The notes: a model not told the origin generated them from the letters alone. 64,000 nucleotides of DNA from an uncultured virus (IMG/VR IMGVR_UViG_3300031281_000001) (IMGVR_UViG_3300031281_000001), one strand, 5' to 3'; shown: positions 11,261-26,558, counted from the stretch's first letter. Numbers and translations: made by a program.

Positions 11261-11665
11261 ATGTACATATCAAAGAAAAATAGGGAAATAGTCAAAAATA
11301 TGTTTAATGGTAAATGTGCCTATACGGGCACAGATTTGCTTGCAGATTGGCAGGTTGATCACATAAAACCGATTAAAAGGAATTGGCAGTTAAACAATTC
11401 AGCAATGTTTGAAGAAAATCATAATTTGCAAAACATGCTTCCAACACAAAGAATCATAAACCATTATAAACACTCAATGGATTTGGAGTTGTTTAGAAAT
11501 TTTATGATGTACTTTCATATTAGACTTTCTAAACTGCCTAAAAATCCAAAGGTCGAAAAATCAATAAAACGAAAGGCGTATATGTTAGAAATCGCAAGGC
11601 TTTTCGATATAACAGCAGATAAACCATTCTCAGGAAAGTTTTGGTTTGAAAAAAACAAATATTAA
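11261..11665 (+). CDS. HNH endonuclease-like protein
   Basis: GKCAYTG...WQVDHIKP...N.LP...IN.YK. Confidence 0.8.
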   Translation: MYISKKNREIVKNMFNGKCAYTGTDLLADWQVDHIKPIKRNWQLNNSAMFEENHNLQNMLPTQRIINHYKHSMDLELFRNFMMYFHIRLSKLPKNPKVEKSIKRKAYMLEIARLFDITADKPFSGKFWFEKNKY

Positions 11666-16853: not shown

Positions 16854-17708
16854 ATGAAAGATACTAAACAAGAAAAACACGTACTTTTAGCCAATCCTTA
16901 TGACGAACCAATGGTAATATCTAACCAATTGGTTGATAGCCTAAGAAAAGAAGAAAAACATGAGGATTTGTTAGCTCTATATACTTTCTATTATGGAATG
17001 ACTAAAAAGCAACAAACAACTCAAATTTGGGCTACTACATCTTTTGCAGCAAAAGGAATGAAGTGGACAGAAGAAAGAGTGAGGAAAACGAAAAGAAAAT
17101 TAAAAGAATTATGGCTCATTGAAGACTTACAAGGCAAGAAAGAAGATGGGTCATTTGGAAAAAGGTATATTCGAGTTTTTTATCGTATTGATACCCAGCG
17201 TACCTCGGATTCACCGTACTACGGTGAAAACCGTACTACGGTAGAGCATGAACTGAAATGCTTGAATACAGAAAATAAGATAAATGCTTTTAAAATAAAG
17301 AGAAGAAATGCTTCATCTTCGTTTTCGAATGGATTTATTACCCAAGAAATGTTTGAGGACTTTTGGAAACTTTATCCAAGAAAAGGGCCTAAAGGAAAAG
17401 CCAAAAAAAAATGGATCGAACTATGTACCCAAAAAACTAAAGAAAGTATTCGTCCAAAATGGACGGAAATAAAAGATGCAATAAAAGCTCAAATTAAAAG
17501 TGAACAATGGCAGGAGGAACAATACATACCATTAGCAGCAACATGGTTGCATCAGACACGTTGGATAGATGATCCAAATGAATTGGTATCATATTCTAAA
17601 CGTGATGAAAGAAAAGAAAAATCATTTGTATCAAGTTATGATGAAGATATCGAAATTCCAGAAAAGTTCAGAAAAATACATGAGTATAATGAAAGAAATA
17701 GAAGATAG
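16854..17708 (+). CDS. Putative replication initiator / replisome organiser
   Basis: HTH-like N-terminus; FEDFWKLYPRK..K.KA...W and YIPLAATWL..RW.D C-terminal domain; upstream of dnaB. Confidence 0.75.
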   Translation: MKDTKQEKHVLLANPYDEPMVISNQLVDSLRKEEKHEDLLALYTFYYGMTKKQQTTQIWATTSFAAKGMKWTEERVRKTKRKLKELWLIEDLQGKKEDGSFGKRYIRVFYRIDTQRTSDSPYYGENRTTVEHELKCLNTENKINAFKIKRRNASSSFSNGFITQEMFEDFWKLYPRKGPKGKAKKKWIELCTQKTKESIRPKWTEIKDAIKAQIKSEQWQEEQYIPLAATWLHQTRWIDDPNELVSYSKRDERKEKSFVSSYDEDIEIPEKFRKIHEYNERNRR

Positions 17709-17710
17709 AT

Positions 17711-19276
17711 ATGAATGAAGATTTTGAAGAAAGAAAGATCATTATAGGTCTTGTAATGTCTACCGAATTTATCCAACGAATAAAGAACTTTTGGTCTATT
17801 CGTCTGATTGAAACGCCGGAAGCAAAACGGATTGCAATGTGGTGCATAGAATACTATGATAAATACAATGAAGCCCCAAAAAAAGAAATAGAAACAATAT
17901 ATTTTTCCAAAAAGAAAAAAGGGCTGCCCGAGGATGTTTGTGAATTGTTCGAAGATGTTTTGCTTCCAGGTTTGTCAGAGGAGTTCGTGGAAGATGGGGG
18001 CATCAATGTGGATTATCTTGTTGACGTTGCACGAAAATACTTTGGTAGGCGAAACCTTCAAACGCACATAGAAAAGTTAATGTCGCTTTTAGAAAAGGGA
18101 AATGTAACGGAAGCTGAAAAAGAAGCTAATTCTTACATGAAATTAGCCGAAGAGTCCAATCCGTGGATAGACCTTTCACATGAAAGCATATTTGACGTTA
18201 TACATCGTGCCTTTAACCGTACCAAGAAATGTTTGATTCCATTCGAGGGGGCAATAGGTGAATTTTGGAACAAACAACTATACAGGGGGGCGTTTGTTGC
18301 ATTGATGGGGCCTGAGAAACGAGGAAAGTCCTATTGGCTATTAGAATTTGCAATGCGTGCCCGAAGAAATAAAAAGAAAGTAGCATTGTTTCAAGCAGGG
18401 GACATGGATGATGAGGATCAGATAATGCGCATAGCCAATTATTTAACTCATAAATCAGAAGACGAAGACAATTCAGGAAAAATATACGAACCCACACTTG
18501 ATTGTATTTTAAATCAAACGGACTTTTGTGACAAAAGAGAACGAACGTGTGATCGTGGTATATTTAATCACAAAATAAAAAATGAAAAAGAAGCAATTAA
18601 GTTAAGAAAAACAATAGCATATCAGGAATTGATCGACGTAAGAAAAACAGCAAAAGGATATAAAACGTGTACAAATTGTGAAATGTTTAAAAAGAGTAAA
18701 TTTGGCACACCGTGGATAAGAAAAACGGATGTAGGCCCACCATTAACGGAAGAGGAAGCAAAAGAAGCATACGACGAATTTTTCGTTCAGTCTAAACGAT
18801 CCTTTCGCATTTCTACACATGCCAATGGAACACTTACGGTAAAAGAAATTGAAAATGTTCTTGGTATTTGGGAACGTGAAGGTTTTATTTCTGATGTAAT
18901 TATAATAGACTATGCAGATCTGTTGACAGAAGATTCACAAAAGGAAGAAAGACATCGTCAAAATAAAGTTTGGAAAGATCTCCGTGGCCTTTCACAAAAG
19001 AAACATGCGTTAATAATAACGGCTACGCAAACAGATGCTGCATCATATTCCAATGATCTTTTAACATTAGACAACTATTCAGAAGACAAACGTAAGTATG
19101 GACATGTAACGGCAATGTATGGATTGAACCAAGATCCATCTGGCAGGGAAAAAGAACTGGGTGTGATGCGCATCAATGAAATAATGTTGCGAAAGGGTAA
19201 ATTTAGCCTGAAGAATCAAGTACATGTTTTGCAAAATCTAACACGTGGAATCCCTTGCCTCACAAGCTATTATTAA
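17711..19276 (+). CDS. DnaB-like replicative helicase
   Basis: Walker A GPEKRGKS, IIIDYADLL and ITATQ. Confidence 0.85.
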   Translation: MNEDFEERKIIIGLVMSTEFIQRIKNFWSIRLIETPEAKRIAMWCIEYYDKYNEAPKKEIETIYFSKKKKGLPEDVCELFEDVLLPGLSEEFVEDGGINVDYLVDVARKYFGRRNLQTHIEKLMSLLEKGNVTEAEKEANSYMKLAEESNPWIDLSHESIFDVIHRAFNRTKKCLIPFEGAIGEFWNKQLYRGAFVALMGPEKRGKSYWLLEFAMRARRNKKKVALFQAGDMDDEDQIMRIANYLTHKSEDEDNSGKIYEPTLDCILNQTDFCDKRERTCDRGIFNHKIKNEKEAIKLRKTIAYQELIDVRKTAKGYKTCTNCEMFKKSKFGTPWIRKTDVGPPLTEEEAKEAYDEFFVQSKRSFRISTHANGTLTVKEIENVLGIWEREGFISDVIIIDYADLLTEDSQKEERHRQNKVWKDLRGLSQKKHALIITATQTDAASYSNDLLTLDNYSEDKRKYGHVTAMYGLNQDPSGREKELGVMRINEIMLRKGKFSLKNQVHVLQNLTRGIPCLTSYY

Positions 19277-19352
19277 AGTCATATTAAATACAAATAAAAT
19301 TATACTAATACGGCAATTAACTATACCACGTGTTATAAAACGTTTTTGAGCG

Positions 19353-19631
19353 ATGGAATTAAAAGAATTTGAAGTAAAAAGATTGACGAATGGTAGAGGA
19401 AACTCTCATTTAGTAGTAATAACCGAACCTGCAATAGAAGATATTAGCATTGGAAGTGTACTCATAGTGCCTTATGCAGATGGTTTTAAAGACCCTAAAA
19501 GCGTAATATTGCAAGTTGATGCAGTCGGTAAACCAAAAACTGCTAACGGCTACGCATATGCGGTCGTGGCCGAATACAAAGAACGAAATTATCAAACAGT
19601 AAATAACATTAGATATGAAACACGAAAGTAA
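19353..19631 (+). CDS. Cassette 1 hypothetical protein
   Basis: ORF reading through the first attC-like arm. Confidence 0.6.
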   Translation: MELKEFEVKRLTNGRGNSHLVVITEPAIEDISIGSVLIVPYADGFKDPKSVILQVDAVGKPKTANGYAYAVVAEYKERNYQTVNNIRYETRK

Positions 19632-20055
19632 CAATAACCCACAAACTAAGGCCATGCCGTATGATGCGATGTTAGTAGCTGGCCGTGAATATAGCATTGA
19701 ATTTGATGAGAACGATAACAACGGCAACCCGTGCGGTAGGGTTCATCAATGCATTATTGGTGATATGTACCTTGAGATAATGGATATGGATGGCACGAGA
19801 TTTAATACAGTTACCTATACTGGCAAGATAGGATTTGAAGTTGAAAACAAAATATTTCCAGCATTAACATTTAATCCCTGGGTTGACAATATGATTTGGA
19901 ACTCATATAAGCTTACAGAAGAAAATGCATTGATGTTGGTTAACCACTTAATTAAGAGCGGTAACTGGACTGTAAACGAAGCACCAACAGAACAGTATGA
20001 AAAATTTGCGGGCGGGCAAGCTTTTGATAAGAGCGACTTACAGGCTTGCTACTAA
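19615..20055 (+). CDS. Cassette 2 hypothetical protein
   Basis: Starts in the attC-like loop; its stop TAA is part of TAAC. Confidence 0.7.
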   Translation: MKHESNNNPQTKAMPYDAMLVAGREYSIEFDENDNNGNPCGRVHQCIIGDMYLEIMDMDGTRFNTVTYTGKIGFEVENKIFPALTFNPWVDNMIWNSYKLTEENALMLVNHLIKSGNWTVNEAPTEQYEKFAGGQAFDKSDLQACY

Positions 20056-20179
20056 CGTTTCGTGTATGAGCAGTGGCACTTGTACACACTTTCAAATTAG
20101 CACAAAACTATCCGTGCCATTGCTTATACACGGTGTTAGCCACAGTATTTTTTAGTAATAATTTTAAAAACAATATATT

Positions 20180-20578
20180 ATGGAAAAGATTTTAAGAATT
20201 GAAGAAACTAACTTCAAAACAAAAGAAAGAAGCTGGGGCGGTTATGATGGTTATCAAATAATAACTGACCAACAGACAATACAAATTGGAATTTCAGATG
20301 GACAATGTTGTTGTGAAAACTTTGGCTGTATAATCACAAACGATGAGACCAAAGAATTTATAGGAGCTGATTTACTCGGTATTTCAATTACTGATACTGC
20401 TTTAAACAACAAAAAGATTGAAGAAATTGAATACTTGGATTGTGGCGGTGCAATGTTTGTGAACTTAGAAACAAGTGAAGGACTTCTACAATTTGTAGCC
20501 TATAATTCTCACAACGGATATTACGGACATGAAGCGGTTTTAATTAGTAAACAACTTAACTGCGAAGAAGGTCTTTAA
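20180..20578 (+). CDS. Cassette 3 hypothetical phage protein
   Basis: QCCCE..G and YNSHNGYYGH motifs. Confidence 0.75.
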   Translation: MEKILRIEETNFKTKERSWGGYDGYQIITDQQTIQIGISDGQCCCENFGCIITNDETKEFIGADLLGISITDTALNNKKIEEIEYLDCGGAMFVNLETSEGLLQFVAYNSHNGYYGHEAVLISKQLNCEEGL

Positions 20579-20646
20579 TATTGTGGCTAACGTTGATGAT
20601 ATGCCCTGATGGGCGATAAATAGTAATAACTTTTAAATTTAGTACA

Positions 20647-20928
20647 ATGAATAAAGAACCGAAAATAGTTTCAAATTTTGACGAACACGCCCATTTGGGT
20701 ATATCTATTGTTAGTTGCCGTTTATTTGATTTGATGGCACTACAAAAAGAAGAATATCACAAATATACAACTCCGATTTATACAAAATTAGATGGAATGT
20801 ACGGATATATTTGTGTAAGTGGATATAAAGTGTTTTTCTTCTGGAATGATGTTCAAAGTGGAAATGTTAGTTGTGATGATGTTACAGAAAAATTCAGAAT
20901 TGAGTATGTTACCGAAAATGGCAACTAA
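20647..20928 (+). CDS. Cassette 4 hypothetical protein
   Basis: Starts in the attC-like loop; stop lies in TAAC. Confidence 0.65.
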   Translation: MNKEPKIVSNFDEHAHLGISIVSCRLFDLMALQKEEYHKYTTPIYTKLDGMYGYICVSGYKVFFFWNDVQSGNVSCDDVTEKFRIEYVTENGN

Positions 20929-21013
20929 CGGTTTTAATAAAAAATCGTTTTAATGTTTTTTATTTATTGTTGTGCTTTCGTTTTTGCGGGAGGGCAACAC
21001 AAACTTTAAGATT

Positions 21014-21202
21014 ATGAAAGCTGAATACTGGAAAGAAAGGATAAAAGAAATTGTAAGTAACAACGATGAAGAAAGTTTAACCCTACTTGCTAAACTAATT
21101 GAAGAAGCTGAACAGGCTAAACAAGAGTTGAGAAATAAAGGTTATGGATGGACTGGATTAAGCTTATTAAAAACAGTTATTGAAGAAGTGCCGAGTGCGT
21201 AG
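21014..21202 (+). CDS. Cassette 5 hypothetical protein
   Basis: ATG at 21014 (MKAEYWK). Confidence 0.6.
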   Translation: MKAEYWKERIKEIVSNNDEESLTLLAKLIEEAEQAKQELRNKGYGWTGLSLLKTVIEEVPSA

Positions 21203-21350
21203 GCAAATGAAGCACAACGATGGTAATATGAAATGGCTGGGATTCGGAGCTACTAACCTATCCCACGCCACAAAACTAACAGGTAGCAAGCTGGCTAAAA
21301 AGTCCGATAACACCCAGCTATTTTATATTATGTGTTAGCGGTAGTTAATT

Positions 21351-21755
21351 ATGTATAAACAATATGTTGTTAAAATTAAACAGTGTGCAAGTTGTGTTTA
21401 TAATAAATGCACAAAAATAAACACACCAATATATAACGAAGAAATTCAAGAAATGCAAGATTTTAGTTATGTGGCAATATGCTCTAAATTAAAAATTGAA
21501 TTAAATGATACTAGCATTATCCCAAATAACTGCCCACTTGATACTTGCAATGTTTATGAAATATGTGTGCATTTAGATGGGGTATCTGTAAATGAAAAAA
21601 GAAAGGTATTTGATGTGTTTAAAGAGGATTATGATGTGGAAATTTTAGATTACATAAGTATGCCAATTGCAAGTATTATTTTTATGTTGATTGATAAAAA
21701 AATTGAACTTCCTGAATATGCTGAATATGTTACTGGAAGGTTTAATTACCGCTAA
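21351..21755 (+). CDS. Cassette 6 hypothetical Cys-rich protein
   Basis: Stop lies in TAAC. Confidence 0.65.
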   Translation: MYKQYVVKIKQCASCVYNKCTKINTPIYNEEIQEMQDFSYVAICSKLKIELNDTSIIPNNCPLDTCNVYEICVHLDGVSVNEKRKVFDVFKEDYDVEILDYISMPIASIIFMLIDKKIELPEYAEYVTGRFNYR

Positions 21756-21815
21756 CGGATTGCGTATTGGCGTTGTTGCCTACTAGCTTAAAATTGAAAC
21801 AAAAATTTTGATGAT

Positions 21816-22082
21816 ATGAAAAAAGATAAATTGAAAAACGGAAGCAATAACGCTAATACGCTGTTATGTGCTGATAATTTTACGGGTTACTTCGATGATG
21901 CTAACAAACCAATTTTTGTTGGTGATAAATTAAGAAGTGAGTGGAATTATGAAATAATTGTAGTAAAAGACGAAGATGGTGATTATAGCGGAAAATTGGT
22001 TTGTGATAACAACCACAGTTGCAAAAACATTCCTTATGCCTTAAATAAGGGCAAAGGTTATAGTAAAATTATTTGTACATAA
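21816..22082 (+). CDS. Cassette 7 YopX-like fragment protein
   Basis: FTGYFDDANKPIFVGDKL resembles the YopX motif; starts in the attC-like loop; stop lies in TAAC. Confidence 0.6.
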   Translation: MKKDKLKNGSNNANTLLCADNFTGYFDDANKPIFVGDKLRSEWNYEIIVVKDEDGDYSGKLVCDNNHSCKNIPYALNKGKGYSKIICT

Positions 22083-22214
22083 CGTTGGTAATATGAAAAG
22101 TTGGCTTTGCCGTCGCTTTCAATTTACCACAGCAGCTTGATAGCCAATTTTTTATATTACGTGTTATCGGCTGCCTTTTATCAATCGAATTTTTAACCTT
22201 TAAATATAAACACA

Positions 22215-22595
22215 ATGAGTAAATACATAACAGAATTTCAGCAAACAGGAAACTCAATTGTAAATGTTGATTTGATTTGCAAAGAGTGGAATGATAGGTT
22301 CACAATTAGCACTTGGATTAATGACAAAGAAGAAAAATACACTTTTGTTGTAAATGGTAAACGCAAAAACACAAGACTTTGCAAAACTAAAATATCAAAA
22401 GACCAAGCGATGGATATTGTTTCAAAACTTGCTCTTATTCACGTAAAAGATAATACTTTCAGGAGTGGTGGAGCTTACCATTCTAAAAATTTTATAAAAT
22501 CAGAGGTTGAAAGAATAACTAAAATCAAACAAGAAAAGGAGCAGGAATTATCATTTATTAATCAGGCACTTTATATGTACGAACGCTGTCTTTAA
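22215..22595 (+). CDS. Cassette 8 hypothetical protein
   Basis: ORF bounded by inverted termini. Confidence 0.7.
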   Translation: MSKYITEFQQTGNSIVNVDLICKEWNDRFTISTWINDKEEKYTFVVNGKRKNTRLCKTKISKDQAMDIVSKLALIHVKDNTFRSGGAYHSKNFIKSEVERITKIKQEKEQELSFINQALYMYERCL

Positions 22596-22671
22596 GGTTG
22601 CCGATAACGGCAACTTGTAAGGCGTAGTTGCGCCAACAATTGAAATACAAAACTTTAAAATAATTACTAAG

Positions 22672-22947
22672 ATGACAAAAGAGAACGAACGTACCGAATT
22701 TGAAGCGCAATTCGCTTTACAAAATGTTAGCAACCGTGTTTTTTCTGACCATTTTTTACAGAAAACCACTAAGCTAACGTTGATTGAAAAAATAGTGTTG
22801 AAGTTTAAAAAGAAGCTGTTTTTTGTAGATGACCTTGAATTGATTACGATTGTTTATAAAAAATGGAGGGGTAAAACTTACATACTAAACAGCTACCATA
22901 ACCCACCAATGCACCCATTGTGTAGATGCTCATTACATGGTTGCTAA
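22672..22947 (+). CDS. Cassette 9 hypothetical protein
   Basis: Starts in the attC-like loop; stop lies in TAAC; ends PPMHPLCRC. Confidence 0.65.
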   Translation: MTKENERTEFEAQFALQNVSNRVFSDHFLQKTTKLTLIEKIVLKFKKKLFFVDDLELITIVYKKWRGKTYILNSYHNPPMHPLCRCSLHGC

Positions 22948-22961
22948 CTATTATATATTAA

Positions 22962-23321
22962 ATGAACTATATAAACATAAGTAAAATGAATACTTTTGAA
23001 CAATCAACTCTTAAAAAATTTGAAAATATTTTAAGGCAAAGAAATTACTCTGAAAGAACTATTCAGATATATTCATTTTATGTTTTAAAATATTATAAAT
23101 CAATAAATAAAGAAACATATCAATTAACTACTCGAGATTTAGTTAATTATTTATATAATTTTAATTATAGTTCTATAAGTCAACAAAATCAAGTTATAAA
23201 CGGATTAAAAGTATTTTACAAATACATCCTTAATAAATCTGATATTCATTTAAATAAAATTGAACGCCCACATAAAGAAAAACATTTACAAGATGTAGTA
23301 AAAAGATTTGAACCAATATAA
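22962..23321 (+). pseudogene. Truncated tyrosine recombinase (N-terminal SAM-like domain of integron-integrase/Xer type only)
   Basis: LRQRNYSERTIQIY...SISQQNQVINGLKVFYKYIL...IERP.KEKHL stops where the catalytic domain should begin; no R-H-R-Y residues. Confidence 0.75.
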
Positions 23322-23339
23322 TAATATTAAAAATAAAAA

Positions 23340-23828
23340 GTGATGCAAACATTTCTACCTTACCCAGATTTTTTGTATAGTGCCAGAGTTTTAGATAAGA
23401 AACGGTGCTGGAAACAAGTTGTAGAAGCTAAACAGATAATTTCAATATTATCTCATTTAGAAGAATGTCCAAAAGATAAGGTCCCCTGGGAAAAACATCC
23501 AGCAGTTAAAATGTGGGAAGGGCATATAGAATGCTTAAAACTTTATTATAATTTTTTTTTATTTGTTTCTAAGGATGTTCATAAGGTAAATACTACCTTG
23601 CCTTTATTTCAGGAGGTAGATGACAAATACCGAAATTGGGAGGGTATATATAAACCCTGGTGGTTAGGAAATAAAGATTTCCATCGTGCTATGCGGTCGA
23701 GATTAATAGAAAAGAATAGGGAATTTTACCTTCCATTGTTCCCAGATGATGAAGGATTTAATGATGGTTTATATCTTTGGCCTGACATGGAAACACGTAC
23801 GTTTAAAACAATTAAACCAAAAAAATAG
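23340..23828 (+). CDS. Pyrimidine-dimer DNA glycosylase / endonuclease V family-like protein
   Basis: MQTFLPY.DF..SA.VLD.KR..KQ.VEA.QI...HPAVKMWEG...PWWLG...FH...RSRL. Confidence 0.8.
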   Translation: MMQTFLPYPDFLYSARVLDKKRCWKQVVEAKQIISILSHLEECPKDKVPWEKHPAVKMWEGHIECLKLYYNFFLFVSKDVHKVNTTLPLFQEVDDKYRNWEGIYKPWWLGNKDFHRAMRSRLIEKNREFYLPLFPDDEGFNDGLYLWPDMETRTFKTIKPKK

Positions 23829-23902
23829 TACACATTCTTTTCAAAGTAAAATATATTAATATAATGATTTATAATTTTTTTAAATATTTTTTTAAATACA
23901 TA

Positions 23903-23934
23903 TTGCAAATTAAAAAAACAGGTATTATATTTAC
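23903..23934 (+). promoter_or_regulatory. Bacteroidota-type promoter
   Basis: TTG-N20-TATATTTAC in an intergenic gap. Confidence 0.6.
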
Positions 23935-23972
23935 AATTCAATTCAAAAATTTAACATTTAATTTTAAAAATT

Positions 23973-24872
23973 ATGGGTTTTACAAACAAAGAGCTGTTAA
24001 AGGCAGCAAAAGAACTGATCGAAAAACTCGATCTTTTAGACGACAATGGCGTAGATTCATTAACGATCCCAAAAAAAGCAGATGATGATTATCTTACTGA
24101 CTTCATAAAAGAAGCTACGGATCAAATGGGGCCTCAAGATGCTGAAATTGAATTTACTGATGAAACAAAAGAAATCATCGAAGAGTTGACCAAACCTAAA
24201 AAGAAAACCGTTAACGAAGTTGGTAAAAAAGAAGGTAGGAAAAAAGTTCTTCCTGAACCAGAAGAAGACGAAGATACGGAAGACGATGAGGATGATGATG
24301 AGGATGAAGACAACGATGATATTTTTGTTATGTTGGAAGAAATCCAAAATGCAAAGAAAATCAAAACATTGAAAGAAATAGTTGCTAACAATGGTGTTTT
24401 CAAAAAAAGTGCAAAAAAACTCAAAGCAATTACCGATATTGACGAACTTCGTGAAGAAATGATTGCCATAATTCAGCCAGAAGTAACTGAAGAAGATGCT
24501 GATGTGGATACAGACGATGATGATGATGGTGATGATGAAGTAACGGTAAAAGTAGATCCAAAGAAAAAGGAAAAGGCCAGTATCAAAAAAGAATCTGTTA
24601 AAGAAACAAAACAGAAAAAAGCAAAAAAAGAACCGAAAGAAAAAGCTTCGAGGAAAGAAGGACGTCAAAAATATGTTTTTGATGCCATTCGTTCCTTGTG
24701 TAAAAAAGGGGCTACTATGGAGCAAATAATGAAAGAAAGTGATGATTTGTGTGTTGAAGCTGGGGGAAATTCCAATCCTACAGCAACAAATGTAAACTCA
24801 TACACTTTGCAGGCTTTGGTTGCTTTCGATGTTTTAGAAAAAGATGGTAAGATTTACAAGTTCAAAAAGTAA
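23973..24872 (+). CDS. Acidic/basic low-complexity protein with a C-terminal domain paralogous to 6067-6483
   Basis: D/E tracts, a K-rich linker and the shared C-terminal domain. Confidence 0.75.
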   Translation: MGFTNKELLKAAKELIEKLDLLDDNGVDSLTIPKKADDDYLTDFIKEATDQMGPQDAEIEFTDETKEIIEELTKPKKKTVNEVGKKEGRKKVLPEPEEDEDTEDDEDDDEDEDNDDIFVMLEEIQNAKKIKTLKEIVANNGVFKKSAKKLKAITDIDELREEMIAIIQPEVTEEDADVDTDDDDDGDDEVTVKVDPKKKEKASIKKESVKETKQKKAKKEPKEKASRKEGRQKYVFDAIRSLCKKGATMEQIMKESDDLCVEAGGNSNPTATNVNSYTLQALVAFDVLEKDGKIYKFKK

Positions 24873-24874
24873 AC

Positions 24875-25927
24875 ATGAATAGGGCAAAACTTCCTAAAAA
24901 TGGTTTTGATTTTAAAGATAAAATTACCCCCGGTAAAGGTTTGCCGGGGCGTTTTATCTTTCCTCCTTTTACAGTGTTGAGGGCTACCGACGGTGAATGG
25001 AATGTTAGAAAACGACAATGGATATCACTTGGTATAAAAAGTGAGGTAGGTCGTGGTGGAAATCTTACTATTCGTGATCCTCAATTGAACGACTTTAATG
25101 TATATAAACATGGAAAGTATAAAAGAAAAGCAGCAACCACTTATAATATTGGTAACAAAACGGAATGGGAAAAAGGTCTTTTGCATAAAGGGAAAACAAT
25201 CAATACTTCAACTGAAAAATGGGATGGTGGTGAAAGTGCGTGGCAGAATAGTGGCACTTCCATTTTTGATCCTGTACTTTGTGAACTTATGTATTCTTGG
25301 TTTTGCCCAATCGAAGGACAAGTCATTGATCCTTTTGCTGGAGGATCCGTCAGGGGAATCGTTGCAACCTTCATGGGATATAAATACTGGGGTTCAGAAT
25401 TACGACAAGAACAAGTTGATGAAAATGTGCTTCAGGGAAAGTCGATTTGTAACGGCAAGGAACCAGTATGGATTTGCGGTGACTCATATGAATATGTGAA
25501 AGAAGCCCCACAATCAGACTTTTTATTTTCATGTCCACCATACGGAAATCTTGAAGTGTATTCAGAATTAGATGCTGATATAAGTAATATGAATTATGAT
25601 GCGTTCATAGACCGTTATACAATTATAATACGTCGTTTCGTGCGTCGTTTAAAAGAAAACCGCTTCGCCTGTTTTGTTGTAGGTAATTTTAGAGACAAAA
25701 AAACAGGAATATATCATAACTTTGTAGGGGATACTATAAAAGCATTTAAACTTGCTGGTATGAATTTCTACAATGACGCTATATTAATCACACCAACTGG
25801 TAGTTTGCCAGTTCGTGCTGGAAGACAATTCGATGCCAGCCGTAAATTAGGCAAAGCGCATCAAAATGTTTTGGTGTTTTACAAAGGAAACCCGAAGGAA
25901 ATTAATAATATATTTAACTATGAATAA
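24875..25927 (+). CDS. DNA N4/N6 methyltransferase
   Basis: IDPFAGG (motif I) and SCPPY (motif IV). Confidence 0.85.
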   Translation: MNRAKLPKNGFDFKDKITPGKGLPGRFIFPPFTVLRATDGEWNVRKRQWISLGIKSEVGRGGNLTIRDPQLNDFNVYKHGKYKRKAATTYNIGNKTEWEKGLLHKGKTINTSTEKWDGGESAWQNSGTSIFDPVLCELMYSWFCPIEGQVIDPFAGGSVRGIVATFMGYKYWGSELRQEQVDENVLQGKSICNGKEPVWICGDSYEYVKEAPQSDFLFSCPPYGNLEVYSELDADISNMNYDAFIDRYTIIIRRFVRRLKENRFACFVVGNFRDKKTGIYHNFVGDTIKAFKLAGMNFYNDAILITPTGSLPVRAGRQFDASRKLGKAHQNVLVFYKGNPKEINNIFNYE

Positions 25928-26558
25928 CATATTATCTTCCAACACCACGACGCGTAAGGTTATTTGTGGTAATTCTTTGAATTTATTAAATAATTACGAA
26001 AACGTCAAAGCTATAATTACAAGTTTGCCTGATATGGAAGAAATAGGCGAAACCAAAATTTATAAGTATCATCTGTGGTTGTTTGTAGCTTGCGAAAAAT
26101 TAAGAAATTCTATTGATGAAAATGGGGTTATTTTTTTCTATCAAACAAATAGAAAATATAAAGGAACATTAATTGATAAAAATAGTTTAATTACATCTCA
26201 ATTTATACCTTACGAATTTAACAAAGTATTTGAAAAAATAATATTGAGAAAAGAACCAGAAACAATTGATAGGTATCGGCCTACCTATACTACTTTAACA
26301 GCATTTTCCAAAACGTTAAAAGCCGGTCAACCCACACCAGATATTATACATAGAGGAAACATGATGTATAAAAACGCAATGGGGGAAAATGCAATAAAAG
26401 TATGTTTGGATTTTGTTAAGAAAAATGTAGAAACTGATACAATACTTGATCCCTTCTGCGGCAGAGGTTCGGTTTTACGTTTAGCAAACTTCTACGGATA
26501 TAATGCCATTGGAATTGATATCGATCCAAAACAATGTGAAATAGCAAAAAATATATGA
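25920..26558 (+). CDS. Second DNA methyltransferase-like protein
   Basis: ITSLPD (atypical motif IV) and LDPFCGRGS...GIDID (motif I). Confidence 0.75.
   Translation: MNNILSSNTTTRKVICGNSLNLLNNYENVKAIITSLPDMEEIGETKIYKYHLWLFVACEKLRNSIDENGVIFFYQTNRKYKGTLIDKNSLITSQFIPYEFNKVFEKIILRKEPETIDRYRPTYTTLTAFSKTLKAGQPTPDIIHRGNMMYKNAMGENAIKVCLDFVKKNVETDTILDPFCGRGSVLRLANFYGYNAIGIDIDPKQCEIAKNI

Follow-up and report, generated by a model that had tools for sequence, protein, structure and literature searches.

Introduction

Integrons are the textbook gene-capture device of bacteria; an insertion found only in the integrase IntI and bulged bases in the attC sites are considered necessary for their chemistry. 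In the classical forms (IntI, attI and attC of class 1 and of Vibrio chromosomal integrons), recombination uses the bottom strand, which is also the sense strand of intI. The integration of CTX phage at dif offers a precedent for an Xer-type enzyme acting on a folded single-stranded hairpin. Here we analyse a stretch of 64,000 nucleotides (hereafter the window) from an uncultured virus (IMG/VR IMGVR_UViG_3300031281_000001), in which nine small genes separated by hairpins form an array that ends, at position 23321, in the remnant of a compact tyrosine recombinase gene. Very probably, this region is an integron-like cassette platform, one of a phage-borne family with a compact Xer-like recombinase.

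Arrays of attC sites have already been reported from phages. Qi, Rajabal, Ghaly, Tetu and Gillings (2023) described attC clusters (CALINs) in virulent phages, found with IntegronFinder and HattCI; that article gives 17 clusters, and its section 3.4 reports that IntI1 recombined one attC site of Polaribacter phage P12002L (PMC9892861). P12002L holds TAAC/CAAC...GTTA sites of the shape seen in the window, beside methyltransferase genes, and the tested site may be one of them. These clusters are like the window in being hairpin-bounded arrays of small genes in a phage, with no working integrase nearby. They differ in having been read as integron parts shared with bacteria, and the available text makes no mention of a phage recombinase of their own, of a docking site or of cargo in reversed orientation (PMC9892861). 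A CALIN is defined by two or more attC-type sites with no integrase gene in reach; the window has eight sites, scored with a custom model and not a standard attC model, and its 64 kb lack an intact recombinase but include a recombinase remnant and a docking site. In the literature as far as it was available, these published phage clusters included, we found no paper describing a dedicated compact recombinase, a docking core or inverted cargo.

As in a classical integron, a docking site lies next to the recombinase gene, together with a row of single-gene units that all point one way. The hairpins are imperfect and have AAC and GTT as borders, a central spacer that stays unpaired and a loop of varying size; the two ends of each unit are complementary. 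The docking site beside the recombinase gene is attI-like, and blocks that distinguish the genomes of the Freya phages abut an equivalent site; the folding strand would be the sense strand of the recombinase gene, with each hairpin ahead of its unit. The TAA|C bond and the + strand that we propose below match the classical arrangement. Unlike IntI, however, the phage enzyme is without the IntI-specific insertion and scores below integron-integrase cut-offs. Phage cargo genes run towards the recombinase, and classical ones away from it under a promoter at the intI/attI end; phage sites carry fixed G.T wobbles where classical sites have extrahelical bases; the unit ends pair over 9–21 nt as against about 7; start codons often lie within the hairpin loop; and the carriers are lytic-type phages, with the platform in the replication module of the relatives. 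The nearest enzymes by sequence are the Xer recombinases (archaeal XerA, PDB 4a8e and 5hxy), which are likewise short and without an arm-binding domain; the phage enzymes differ in falling below the XerA cut-off and in having no dif site or chromosome-resolution context. Elements that exploit Xer consist of one integrated element, whereas the loci considered here are arrays of many units.

Hairpin sites of the array

A preliminary description of this stretch, made from its sequence, had reported eight hairpins beginning (T/C)AAC and ending GTT, and had proposed examining them with an attC-type covariance model and for extrahelical bases. We trained a custom covariance model on an alignment of 44 sites of about 120 nt, taken from other viral contigs only and none from the window. 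Applied to the whole window, it recovered seven of the eight hairpins (52.8–72.8 bits; E 6e-12 to 4.8e-8, rough values), every match being on the + strand within 19540–22733. The remaining one, a short junction at 20922–20976, was weak (16.8 bits; E 0.49 over the window and 0.034 over 4.4 kb). Outside the array, the best match in the 64 kb reached 18.4 bits (E 0.23), and the window sites read on the - strand gave 15.3 bits or less. A simple stem scan of the + strand of the window returned eight sites, five of them at 14.5 or more, and those five were all within the array; ten mononucleotide shuffles of one strand gave 0–4 sites per shuffle, counted at a threshold of 11 and not by individual score.

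Strong DNA folding was predicted for the + strand at six junctions (-11 to -16 kcal/mol). The consensus fold of the 44 sites has 24 pairs, 17 of which show compensatory changes. In this fold, an outer TAACG/TGTTA helix is joined by an internal loop of 5/1 nt to a stem of 19 bp. Within the stem, a T-A pair is invariant (44/44) and G.T pairs are fixed (43/44 and 42/44), these wobbles occupying fixed positions on the transcribed strand. The extrahelical bases that the preliminary description led us to look for are missing from the consensus stem, which is continuous and has the fixed G.T wobbles in their place; single-base bulges occur only in two individual sites of the window, the hairpins J1 and J8 (numbered J1–J8 from left to right). 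Sites fall into three length classes of about 45, 85 and 120 nt.

The loops of the ~120-nt class (columns 34–100 of the 44-site alignment) are non-random, with stretches such as GATTnnAAAC and ATTAGAAGCACAAA recurring. A search of 18500–24500 against Rfam reached no family threshold, its sole match being WsnRNA46 with 27 bits vs 65.3. An 18-mer from the J5/J7 arm was also tried as a marker and occurred in 17 loci; nine of these (L001, L003, L005–L007, L009–L011 and L014) were without a model match and were discarded as chance matches.

Cassette units and their private ends

On the + strand, a unit would read as a hairpin, a private stretch starting with GTTA, a small gene, and a complementary stretch ending with TAAC. 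Each hairpin goes with the gene downstream of it, and not with the upstream gene to which it had been assigned. All nine open reading frames (ORFs; c1–c9) lie on the + strand, as does the recombinase downstream of them, and the cargo is thus read towards the recombinase. The TAA of TAAC is the stop codon of six ORFs, and four ORFs (c2, c4, c7 and c9) have their start codon inside the loop of the preceding hairpin.

Eight pairs of complementary ends had been listed for cassettes 2–9, and all 16 strings are where they had been placed. Six pairs are perfect reverse complements and two are imperfect (20135/20591 and 21863/22083); true partners share uninterrupted complementary runs of 9, 10, 10, 9, 10, 7, 9 and 10 nt (cassettes 2–9, in order), as against 3–6 nt for mismatched start/end partners in an all-versus-all control, where the runs are the shared GTTA/TAAC only. 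Start and end are thus complementary in eight of the nine units, unit 1 having an interrupted pairing only. Insertion of hairpins in the manner of miniature inverted-repeat transposable elements was considered and rejected: the complementary flanks enclose the gene, not the hairpin.

The array begins at its left end with a half hairpin (19306–19335, + strand), only a 3' arm plus GTTA, in which CAATTAACTATACCACGTGTTA resembles the 3' arm of a site in a viral contig (L004:324–444). The covariance model gave no match to 19306–19335, and a separate contig of sequencing run X1 shares with the window only 19305–19336. Unit 1 (19332–19546) contains the start of c1 (19353–19631), which runs across a TAAC into the next hairpin. 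Its ends pair as 4+7 bp, GTTA+GTTTTTG (19332–35 and 19342–48) against CAAAAAC+TAAC (19534–40 and 19544–47), and it is the weakest of the nine. The first full hairpin had been placed at 19628; it actually begins with the TAAC at 19544–19547, inside that ORF. This hairpin, J1 (TAAC 19544–47 to GTTA 19671–74; model match 19540–19678, 55.9 bits), heads unit 2 (19547–20055), with cargo c2 (ATG at 19654, stop at 20055) and the end pair GTTAGTAGC/GCTACTAAC. Unit 3 (20056–20590) comprises J2 (20053–20138, 58 bits) and c3 (20180–20578; DUF7448, Pfam 2e-12), and unit 4 (20591–20928) comprises J3 (20588–20713, 70.5 bits) and c4 (20647–20928), with the end pair GTTAGTTGCC/GGCAACTAAC.

Unit 5 (20929–21217) has the short A/T hairpin J4 (20926–20972), the weakly matched junction mentioned above, with c5 (21014–21202) and the end pair GTTGTGCTT/AAGCACAAC; a class of sites of about 45 nt is present in other loci. 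It is followed by unit 6 (21218–21755; J5, 21215–21337, 72.8 bits, and c6, 21351–21755), which is covered by a contig of run X2 (21190–21758), and by unit 7 (21756–22082; J6, 21753–21866, 62.9 bits, and c7, 21816–22082), whose imperfect end pair extends over 21 nt. Unit 8 (22083–22607) consists of J7 (22080–22166, 54.3 bits), a leader and c8 (22215–22595). The last, unit 9 (22608–22947; J8, 22605–22729, 52.8 bits, and c9, 22672–22947; end pair GTTAGCAACC/GGTTGCTAAC), ends at a TAAC that abuts the docking core, and no further hairpin follows.

The cargo is nearly all of unknown function. Pfam gives only DUF7448 (c3) and PHROGs a single family of unknown function; an Atlas search with c2 returned no match, and relatives of c6 and c8 sought in viral contigs were not found.

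The recombinase remnant, its docking core and the phage-borne family

The presence of a tyrosine-recombinase remnant at the end of the array, noted earlier, is borne out. The remnant (22986–23321, + strand; ORF 22962–23321) corresponds to residues 1 to ~100 of ~269 and carries the N-terminal SAM-like domain only (Pfam PF13495, 1.2e-11), with no catalytic domain. It is 77% identical to the homologue P0001 over residues 1–105 and stops, in the alignment, after ERPHKEKHL, ahead of R135, K160, HxxR, H245 and Y254. Its last codons (..EPI*) may be the true C-terminus after an internal deletion, an idea based on an 8-nt resemblance only. Around the start codon and the first ~30 codons lies an A/T-rich inverted repeat (22974–23084; AACATAAGTAAAATGAATA ... 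TATTCATTTTATGTT) with a stem-scan score of 14–17.

We found 49 longer homologues (best identity 77%) of 220–286 amino acids, mostly 264–269, with a full catalytic domain in which the catalytic R, K, HxxR, H and Y are kept. The best NCBIfam model for the full-length relatives is archaeal XerA (NF040815; 187 bits vs a cut-off of 220), and the comparison with the XerA structure 4a8e gave 1.6e-38. The integron-integrase model TIGR02249 reached 141.6 bits vs a cut-off of 265, in two stretches, and the phage enzyme has 33 amino acids where VchIntIA (PDB 2a3v) has 81. Judged by these comparisons, the family is Xer-like and not IntI, contrary to what the likeness to integrons had first implied about the enzyme.

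Relatives of the recombinase are encoded by 130 viral contigs, and 80 of these loci were analysed. Among prokaryotes (one genome per species, 185,579 species), the enzyme was found at 10 loci, eight of them in contigs, mostly short, of metagenome-assembled genomes and two in flavobacterial isolates. A second truncated recombinase, of 220 amino acids and ending in HFHLQHY* within HxxR, lies beside hairpin sites in a 334-kb viral contig (L004:1273–1935); decay of the enzyme beside kept arrays is therefore not unique to the window.

Both flanks were present in 31 loci, and in these the model matched 158 times at E<=1e-4 (about 20 of the matches being training sequences); every match was on the sense strand of the recombinase (158/158) and 155/158 were upstream of it, the three downstream matches all being in one locus, L019. 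The stem scan of the family loci found 289 sites, 271 on the recombinase strand, 243 with TAACG on the left and 267 with GTTA on the right. The seven strong sites of the window follow the same rule, all being on the + strand and upstream of the remnant.

Between the last unit and the remnant lies an attI-like docking site, TAAC|TATTATATAT (22945–22985, + strand), 37 nt before the ATG of the remnant and an exact match to the family core. The 14-nt core TAACTATTATATAT at 22945 is the sole copy in the 64 kb on both strands, with up to two mismatches allowed. Elsewhere in the family, the docking core lies about 40 nt ahead of the start codon of the recombinase; it occurs no more than 120 nt upstream of the recombinase ATG in 41/56 testable loci (24 loci with too little flank or an unclear start were left out), as compared with 0/168 control windows further upstream. 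To our knowledge, the sequence of this core is unrelated to known attI sites.

Presence, absence and exchange of units

Several comparisons reveal units that come and go with precision. A 677-nt contig of run X2, from a salt-marsh sample other than the likely source of the window, joins 20051 to 20587 within a shared 8-nt CTAACGTT (depth 7.25; 44 nt on the short side) and is thus without exactly 20056–20590, that is, J2 and cassette 3. The same run also holds low-depth pieces of unit 3. Another viral locus, L115, has an array in which the model matched five times and in which a cassette 3 protein with 98% identity is flanked by different neighbours; the DNA of L115 is homologous to the window exactly at 20053–20594 and nowhere else. 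The ends of this cassette differ from those of the window by two double substitutions that keep the pairing (GTTAGCCACAGTATT/AATATTGTGGCTAAC vs GTTAGCTACCGTATT/AATATGGTAGCTAAC), and these compensatory changes link ends ~450 nt apart. Similarly, the cargo of cassette 2 recurs in L146 with 86% amino acid identity, the DNA homology extending over 19655–20056 and ending exactly at AAC.

The hairpin of unit 8 belongs to a frame found in four relatives. The J7-type hairpin, followed by GTTATCGGCTGCC and a ~40-nt A/T-rich leader up to the ATG, recurs in L002, L008 (=L015), L013 and L017, as does the trailer from the stop codon, TAAGGTTGCCGATAAC (TAAGGTTGCCGATAA(C/T)), which ends in T and not C in L008. 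This frame (window 22080–22215 and 22593–22608) surrounds five different ORFs in the window and the four relatives, with borders at the start and stop codons, and the left flanks of the J7-type hairpins diverge from TAAC outward. By tblastn, c8 had no match to the ORFs of these four relatives, which were not compared with one another. J5 is 89% identical to a hairpin in L020 (5393–5537), where it heads a different cargo.

Cultured Polaribacter phages provide a further case. The integrase of Freya_1, Freya_5 and Freya_10 is 37% identical to P0001, and these near-identical genomes differ by blocks of 4.9 kb and 3.2 kb immediately upstream of the integrase gene, with one junction of a block reading ...AAC|ACCCCTATAAC and the opposite one ...AAC|hairpin. 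The covariance model gave no match at E<=1e-3 in the Freya loci because this subfamily is too distant; sites were seen there only by the looser stem scan. The article on these phages takes the integrase as a sign of lysogeny, and the words cassette, integron and hairpin were not found in the available part of its text (PMC8776804).

The preliminary description had expected its proposal to fail if homologous arrays were found without an intact recombinase, or if breakpoints were unrelated to AAC/GTT. The first expectation is answered by the 130 viral contigs that encode a relative and by the upstream position of nearly all sites, the second by the differences in X2, L115, L146 and the Freya genomes, which fall at the AAC core. 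The proposal of a cassette capture and shuffling system in a phage is therefore supported both by the family association and by the unit-precise presence and absence of cassettes.

It should be noted that runs X3 and X10 hold small shares only and were not used for conclusions, and that stretches without cover in X2 were not counted as evidence. A contig of run X1 skips 289 nt of the array (21506 to 21796, from c6 to the loop of J6) with 22 nt on its short side and ends that are not at the core; it is probably a repeat or another organism. An all-versus-all BLAST of 98 loci, which asked whether cargo travels with its left or its right hairpin, gave 466 high-scoring segment pairs that were mostly hairpins alone and uninformative; among the 48 long ones, 45 did not begin or end at a site core, and recombinase genes made up most of the ones inspected. 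A lone HNH-type gene of the window (11261–11665) is 81% identical at the amino acid level to a cargo of L020 (5531–5920) that is headed by the J5-like hairpin (89%), with DNA homology from a few bases ahead of the ATG; one phage therefore carries this gene framed as a cassette, and another carries it free of such a frame.

Genomic context

The window has a G+C content of 33%, which is also that of the array, and is of the tailed phage type. Its replication and packaging genes include those for a terminase, an SNF2 helicase, a replication initiator, a DnaB-like helicase, a family A polymerase, a clamp and clamp loader and a RecA-like protein, the tail and capsid genes being on the opposite strand. 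Searched by blastn against cultured and GenBank phages, 17001–25000 gave a sole match of 158 nt in two uncultured records, with no near relative among cultured phages; the DnaB of the window, used as a single query against viral contigs, had no match.

The left neighbour of the array is the DnaB-like helicase gene (17711–19276, + strand; PHROG 19 at 3.6e-23, with a weak Pfam DnaB_C match), and the right neighbour is a DenV-like pyrimidine-dimer glycosylase gene (23340–23828, + strand; Pfam Pyr_excise, 5.7e-13). The array had been described as inserted directly after dnaB, a view that the relatives do not support. In the syntenic L077, L020 and L084, the order is initiator, array, full recombinase and DnaB, with DenV coming next in L077; in L077 and L020, the stop codon of the recombinase overlaps the start of DnaB. 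The recombinase of these relatives sits within the phage replication module. The window has initiator, DnaB, array, recombinase remnant and DenV; its platform was therefore rearranged relative to the relatives and moved with respect to DnaB. Taken with the half hairpin at the left end of the array, the gene order of the relatives shows that the rearrangement came about by events that were not site-specific and also removed the catalytic domain.

In run X2, a contig of depth 2 leads from the end of the remnant (23336) through 31 letters of other sequence to a point farther left, in mid-DnaB (18570); a chimera, or a different order of this region, may account for it. Further to the right, two overlapping ORFs (24875–25927 and 25866–26558) match different portions of an N6/N4 DNA methylase domain (positions 4–110 and 163–220 of the profile), and the former matches L077 at two separate places; together they may be a split or interrupted methyltransferase gene.

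Discussion

We propose that the + strand, which is the sense strand of the recombinase, would fold so that TAACG pairs with TGTTA and the 19-bp stem with its fixed G.T wobbles forms, whereupon the recombinase would exchange one strand at TAA|C. Such an exchange between two hairpins would excise a circle, in which the two private ends could pair and lengthen the stem of the hairpin; an exchange between a hairpin and the docking site would insert a unit beside the recombinase. Since the recombinase of the window is reduced to ~100 codons, this copy cannot shuffle by itself, and its units would move only if a co-infecting phage supplied the enzyme, or would have moved before the recombinase was lost. 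The array would then be in a CALIN-like state and may or may not be served in trans.

A number of observations sit uneasily with this reading. The covariance model is custom-built and is not that of IntegronFinder, with E-values that are rough, and G.T pairs on the transcribed strand could reflect the folding of RNA rather than of single-stranded DNA. The deletion in X2 is flanked by two 8-nt direct repeats and could also have arisen by replication slippage; one ORF, c1, reads through a TAAC; and neither a catalytic domain nor a second copy of the recombinase was found in a search that covered only the 64-kb window of the genome. The runs, which consist of contigs only and cannot show circles, revealed no circular cassette. 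Moreover, the ends and cargo of cassette 3 follow a different hairpin in the locus L116, as do those of cassette 2 in L146, and J5- and J7-type hairpins head different right flanks. Exchange has therefore also occurred at the right-hand GTT border, which a single crossover at TAA|C does not explain; rarer events on the other strand, or homologous recombination, were perhaps responsible.

Three other explanations were weighed against a phage-borne cassette platform. It is very improbable that the array came from a host as a piece of a classical integron of bacteria (a CALIN), with ordinary attC sites served by a host IntI. The AAC...GTT borders, the unpaired spacer and the variable loops do resemble attC, and, in the study of 17 phage clusters, IntI1 recombined 5/6 tested phage sites (PMC9892861). 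However, homologous arrays end in an enzyme other than IntI; the stop codon of this enzyme in the relatives overlaps the DnaB start within a phage replication module; and 10 loci among 185,579 prokaryote species stand against 130 viral contigs. The orientation of the cargo is also opposite to the classical one, the consensus stem has no bulged bases, and the G+C content of the array is that of the phage. We also regard as improbable, if slightly less so, an account in which both the hairpins and the paired ends would form in RNA, within a polycistronic transcript, and act in processing, stability or translation control, with variation due to homologous recombination or slippage and a recombinase that serves another role, such as lysogeny or multimer resolution. 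It would accommodate the G.U-type wobbles at fixed positions on the transcribed strand, the start codons in loops, the compensatory changes in L115, which would fit long-range RNA pairing as well, and the X2 deletion between 8-nt repeats; the related integrases of Freya, Leef, Danklef and Ingeline have moreover been read as a sign of a temperate lifestyle in the available text of their description (PMC8776804). Yet the docking core by the recombinase start carries the same TAAC and is the fixed junction of the Freya block differences, and units recur in other phages cut exactly at TAAC. The position of 155/158 sites upstream of the recombinase is unexplained by RNA function alone, and the region remains far below any Rfam threshold (27 bits vs 65.3). 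An RNA role alongside recombination may exist.

Less easily dismissed, though still on balance doubtful, is the idea that the array was built with an intact recombinase and is now a fixed, dead fossil, the X2 variant being an older or slipped form. The truncation of the recombinase with no second copy in 64 kb, the half hairpin at the left end, the degenerate J4 and unit 1, and the rearrangement of the platform relative to its relatives are all what such a fossil would show. Against it, seven hairpins still score 52.8–72.8 bits and the docking core is exact, which would not be expected after long neutral decay; and two forms that differ by one whole unit occur in same-year salt-marsh samples, with X2 keeping low-depth pieces of unit 3.

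Beyond the cassette platform itself, we tentatively entertain a broader possibility, namely that phages of the Bacteroidota type have an integron analogue of their own, with an Xer-like enzyme acting on one folded strand, hairpins marked by G.T pairs, no IntI insertion and no bulged bases, and that they draw on a shared pool of cassettes whose units are moved in trans. An array without a recombinase of its own, such as that of the window, would then retain its sites and docking core and go on gaining or losing whole units with enzyme from co-infecting phages. If this is true, the chemistry of integrons either originated or persisted outside the clade of IntI, and the sharp borders of hairpin, leader and trailer around apparently unrelated genes would offer a way to study the birth of cassettes. 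In the array and its relatives, integron logic is combined with a smaller, Xer-like enzyme and differently marked sites, which makes the minimal needs of single-strand cassette recombination testable. The finding also changes the reading of the 'integrase' genes of flavobacterial phages, which the available text of the Freya study takes as signs of lysogeny (PMC8776804). It points to a compartment of fast turnover in phage genomes, to which the window adds a natural polymorphism of one unit between samples, the compensatory evolution of cassette ends and a platform that has outlived its recombinase.

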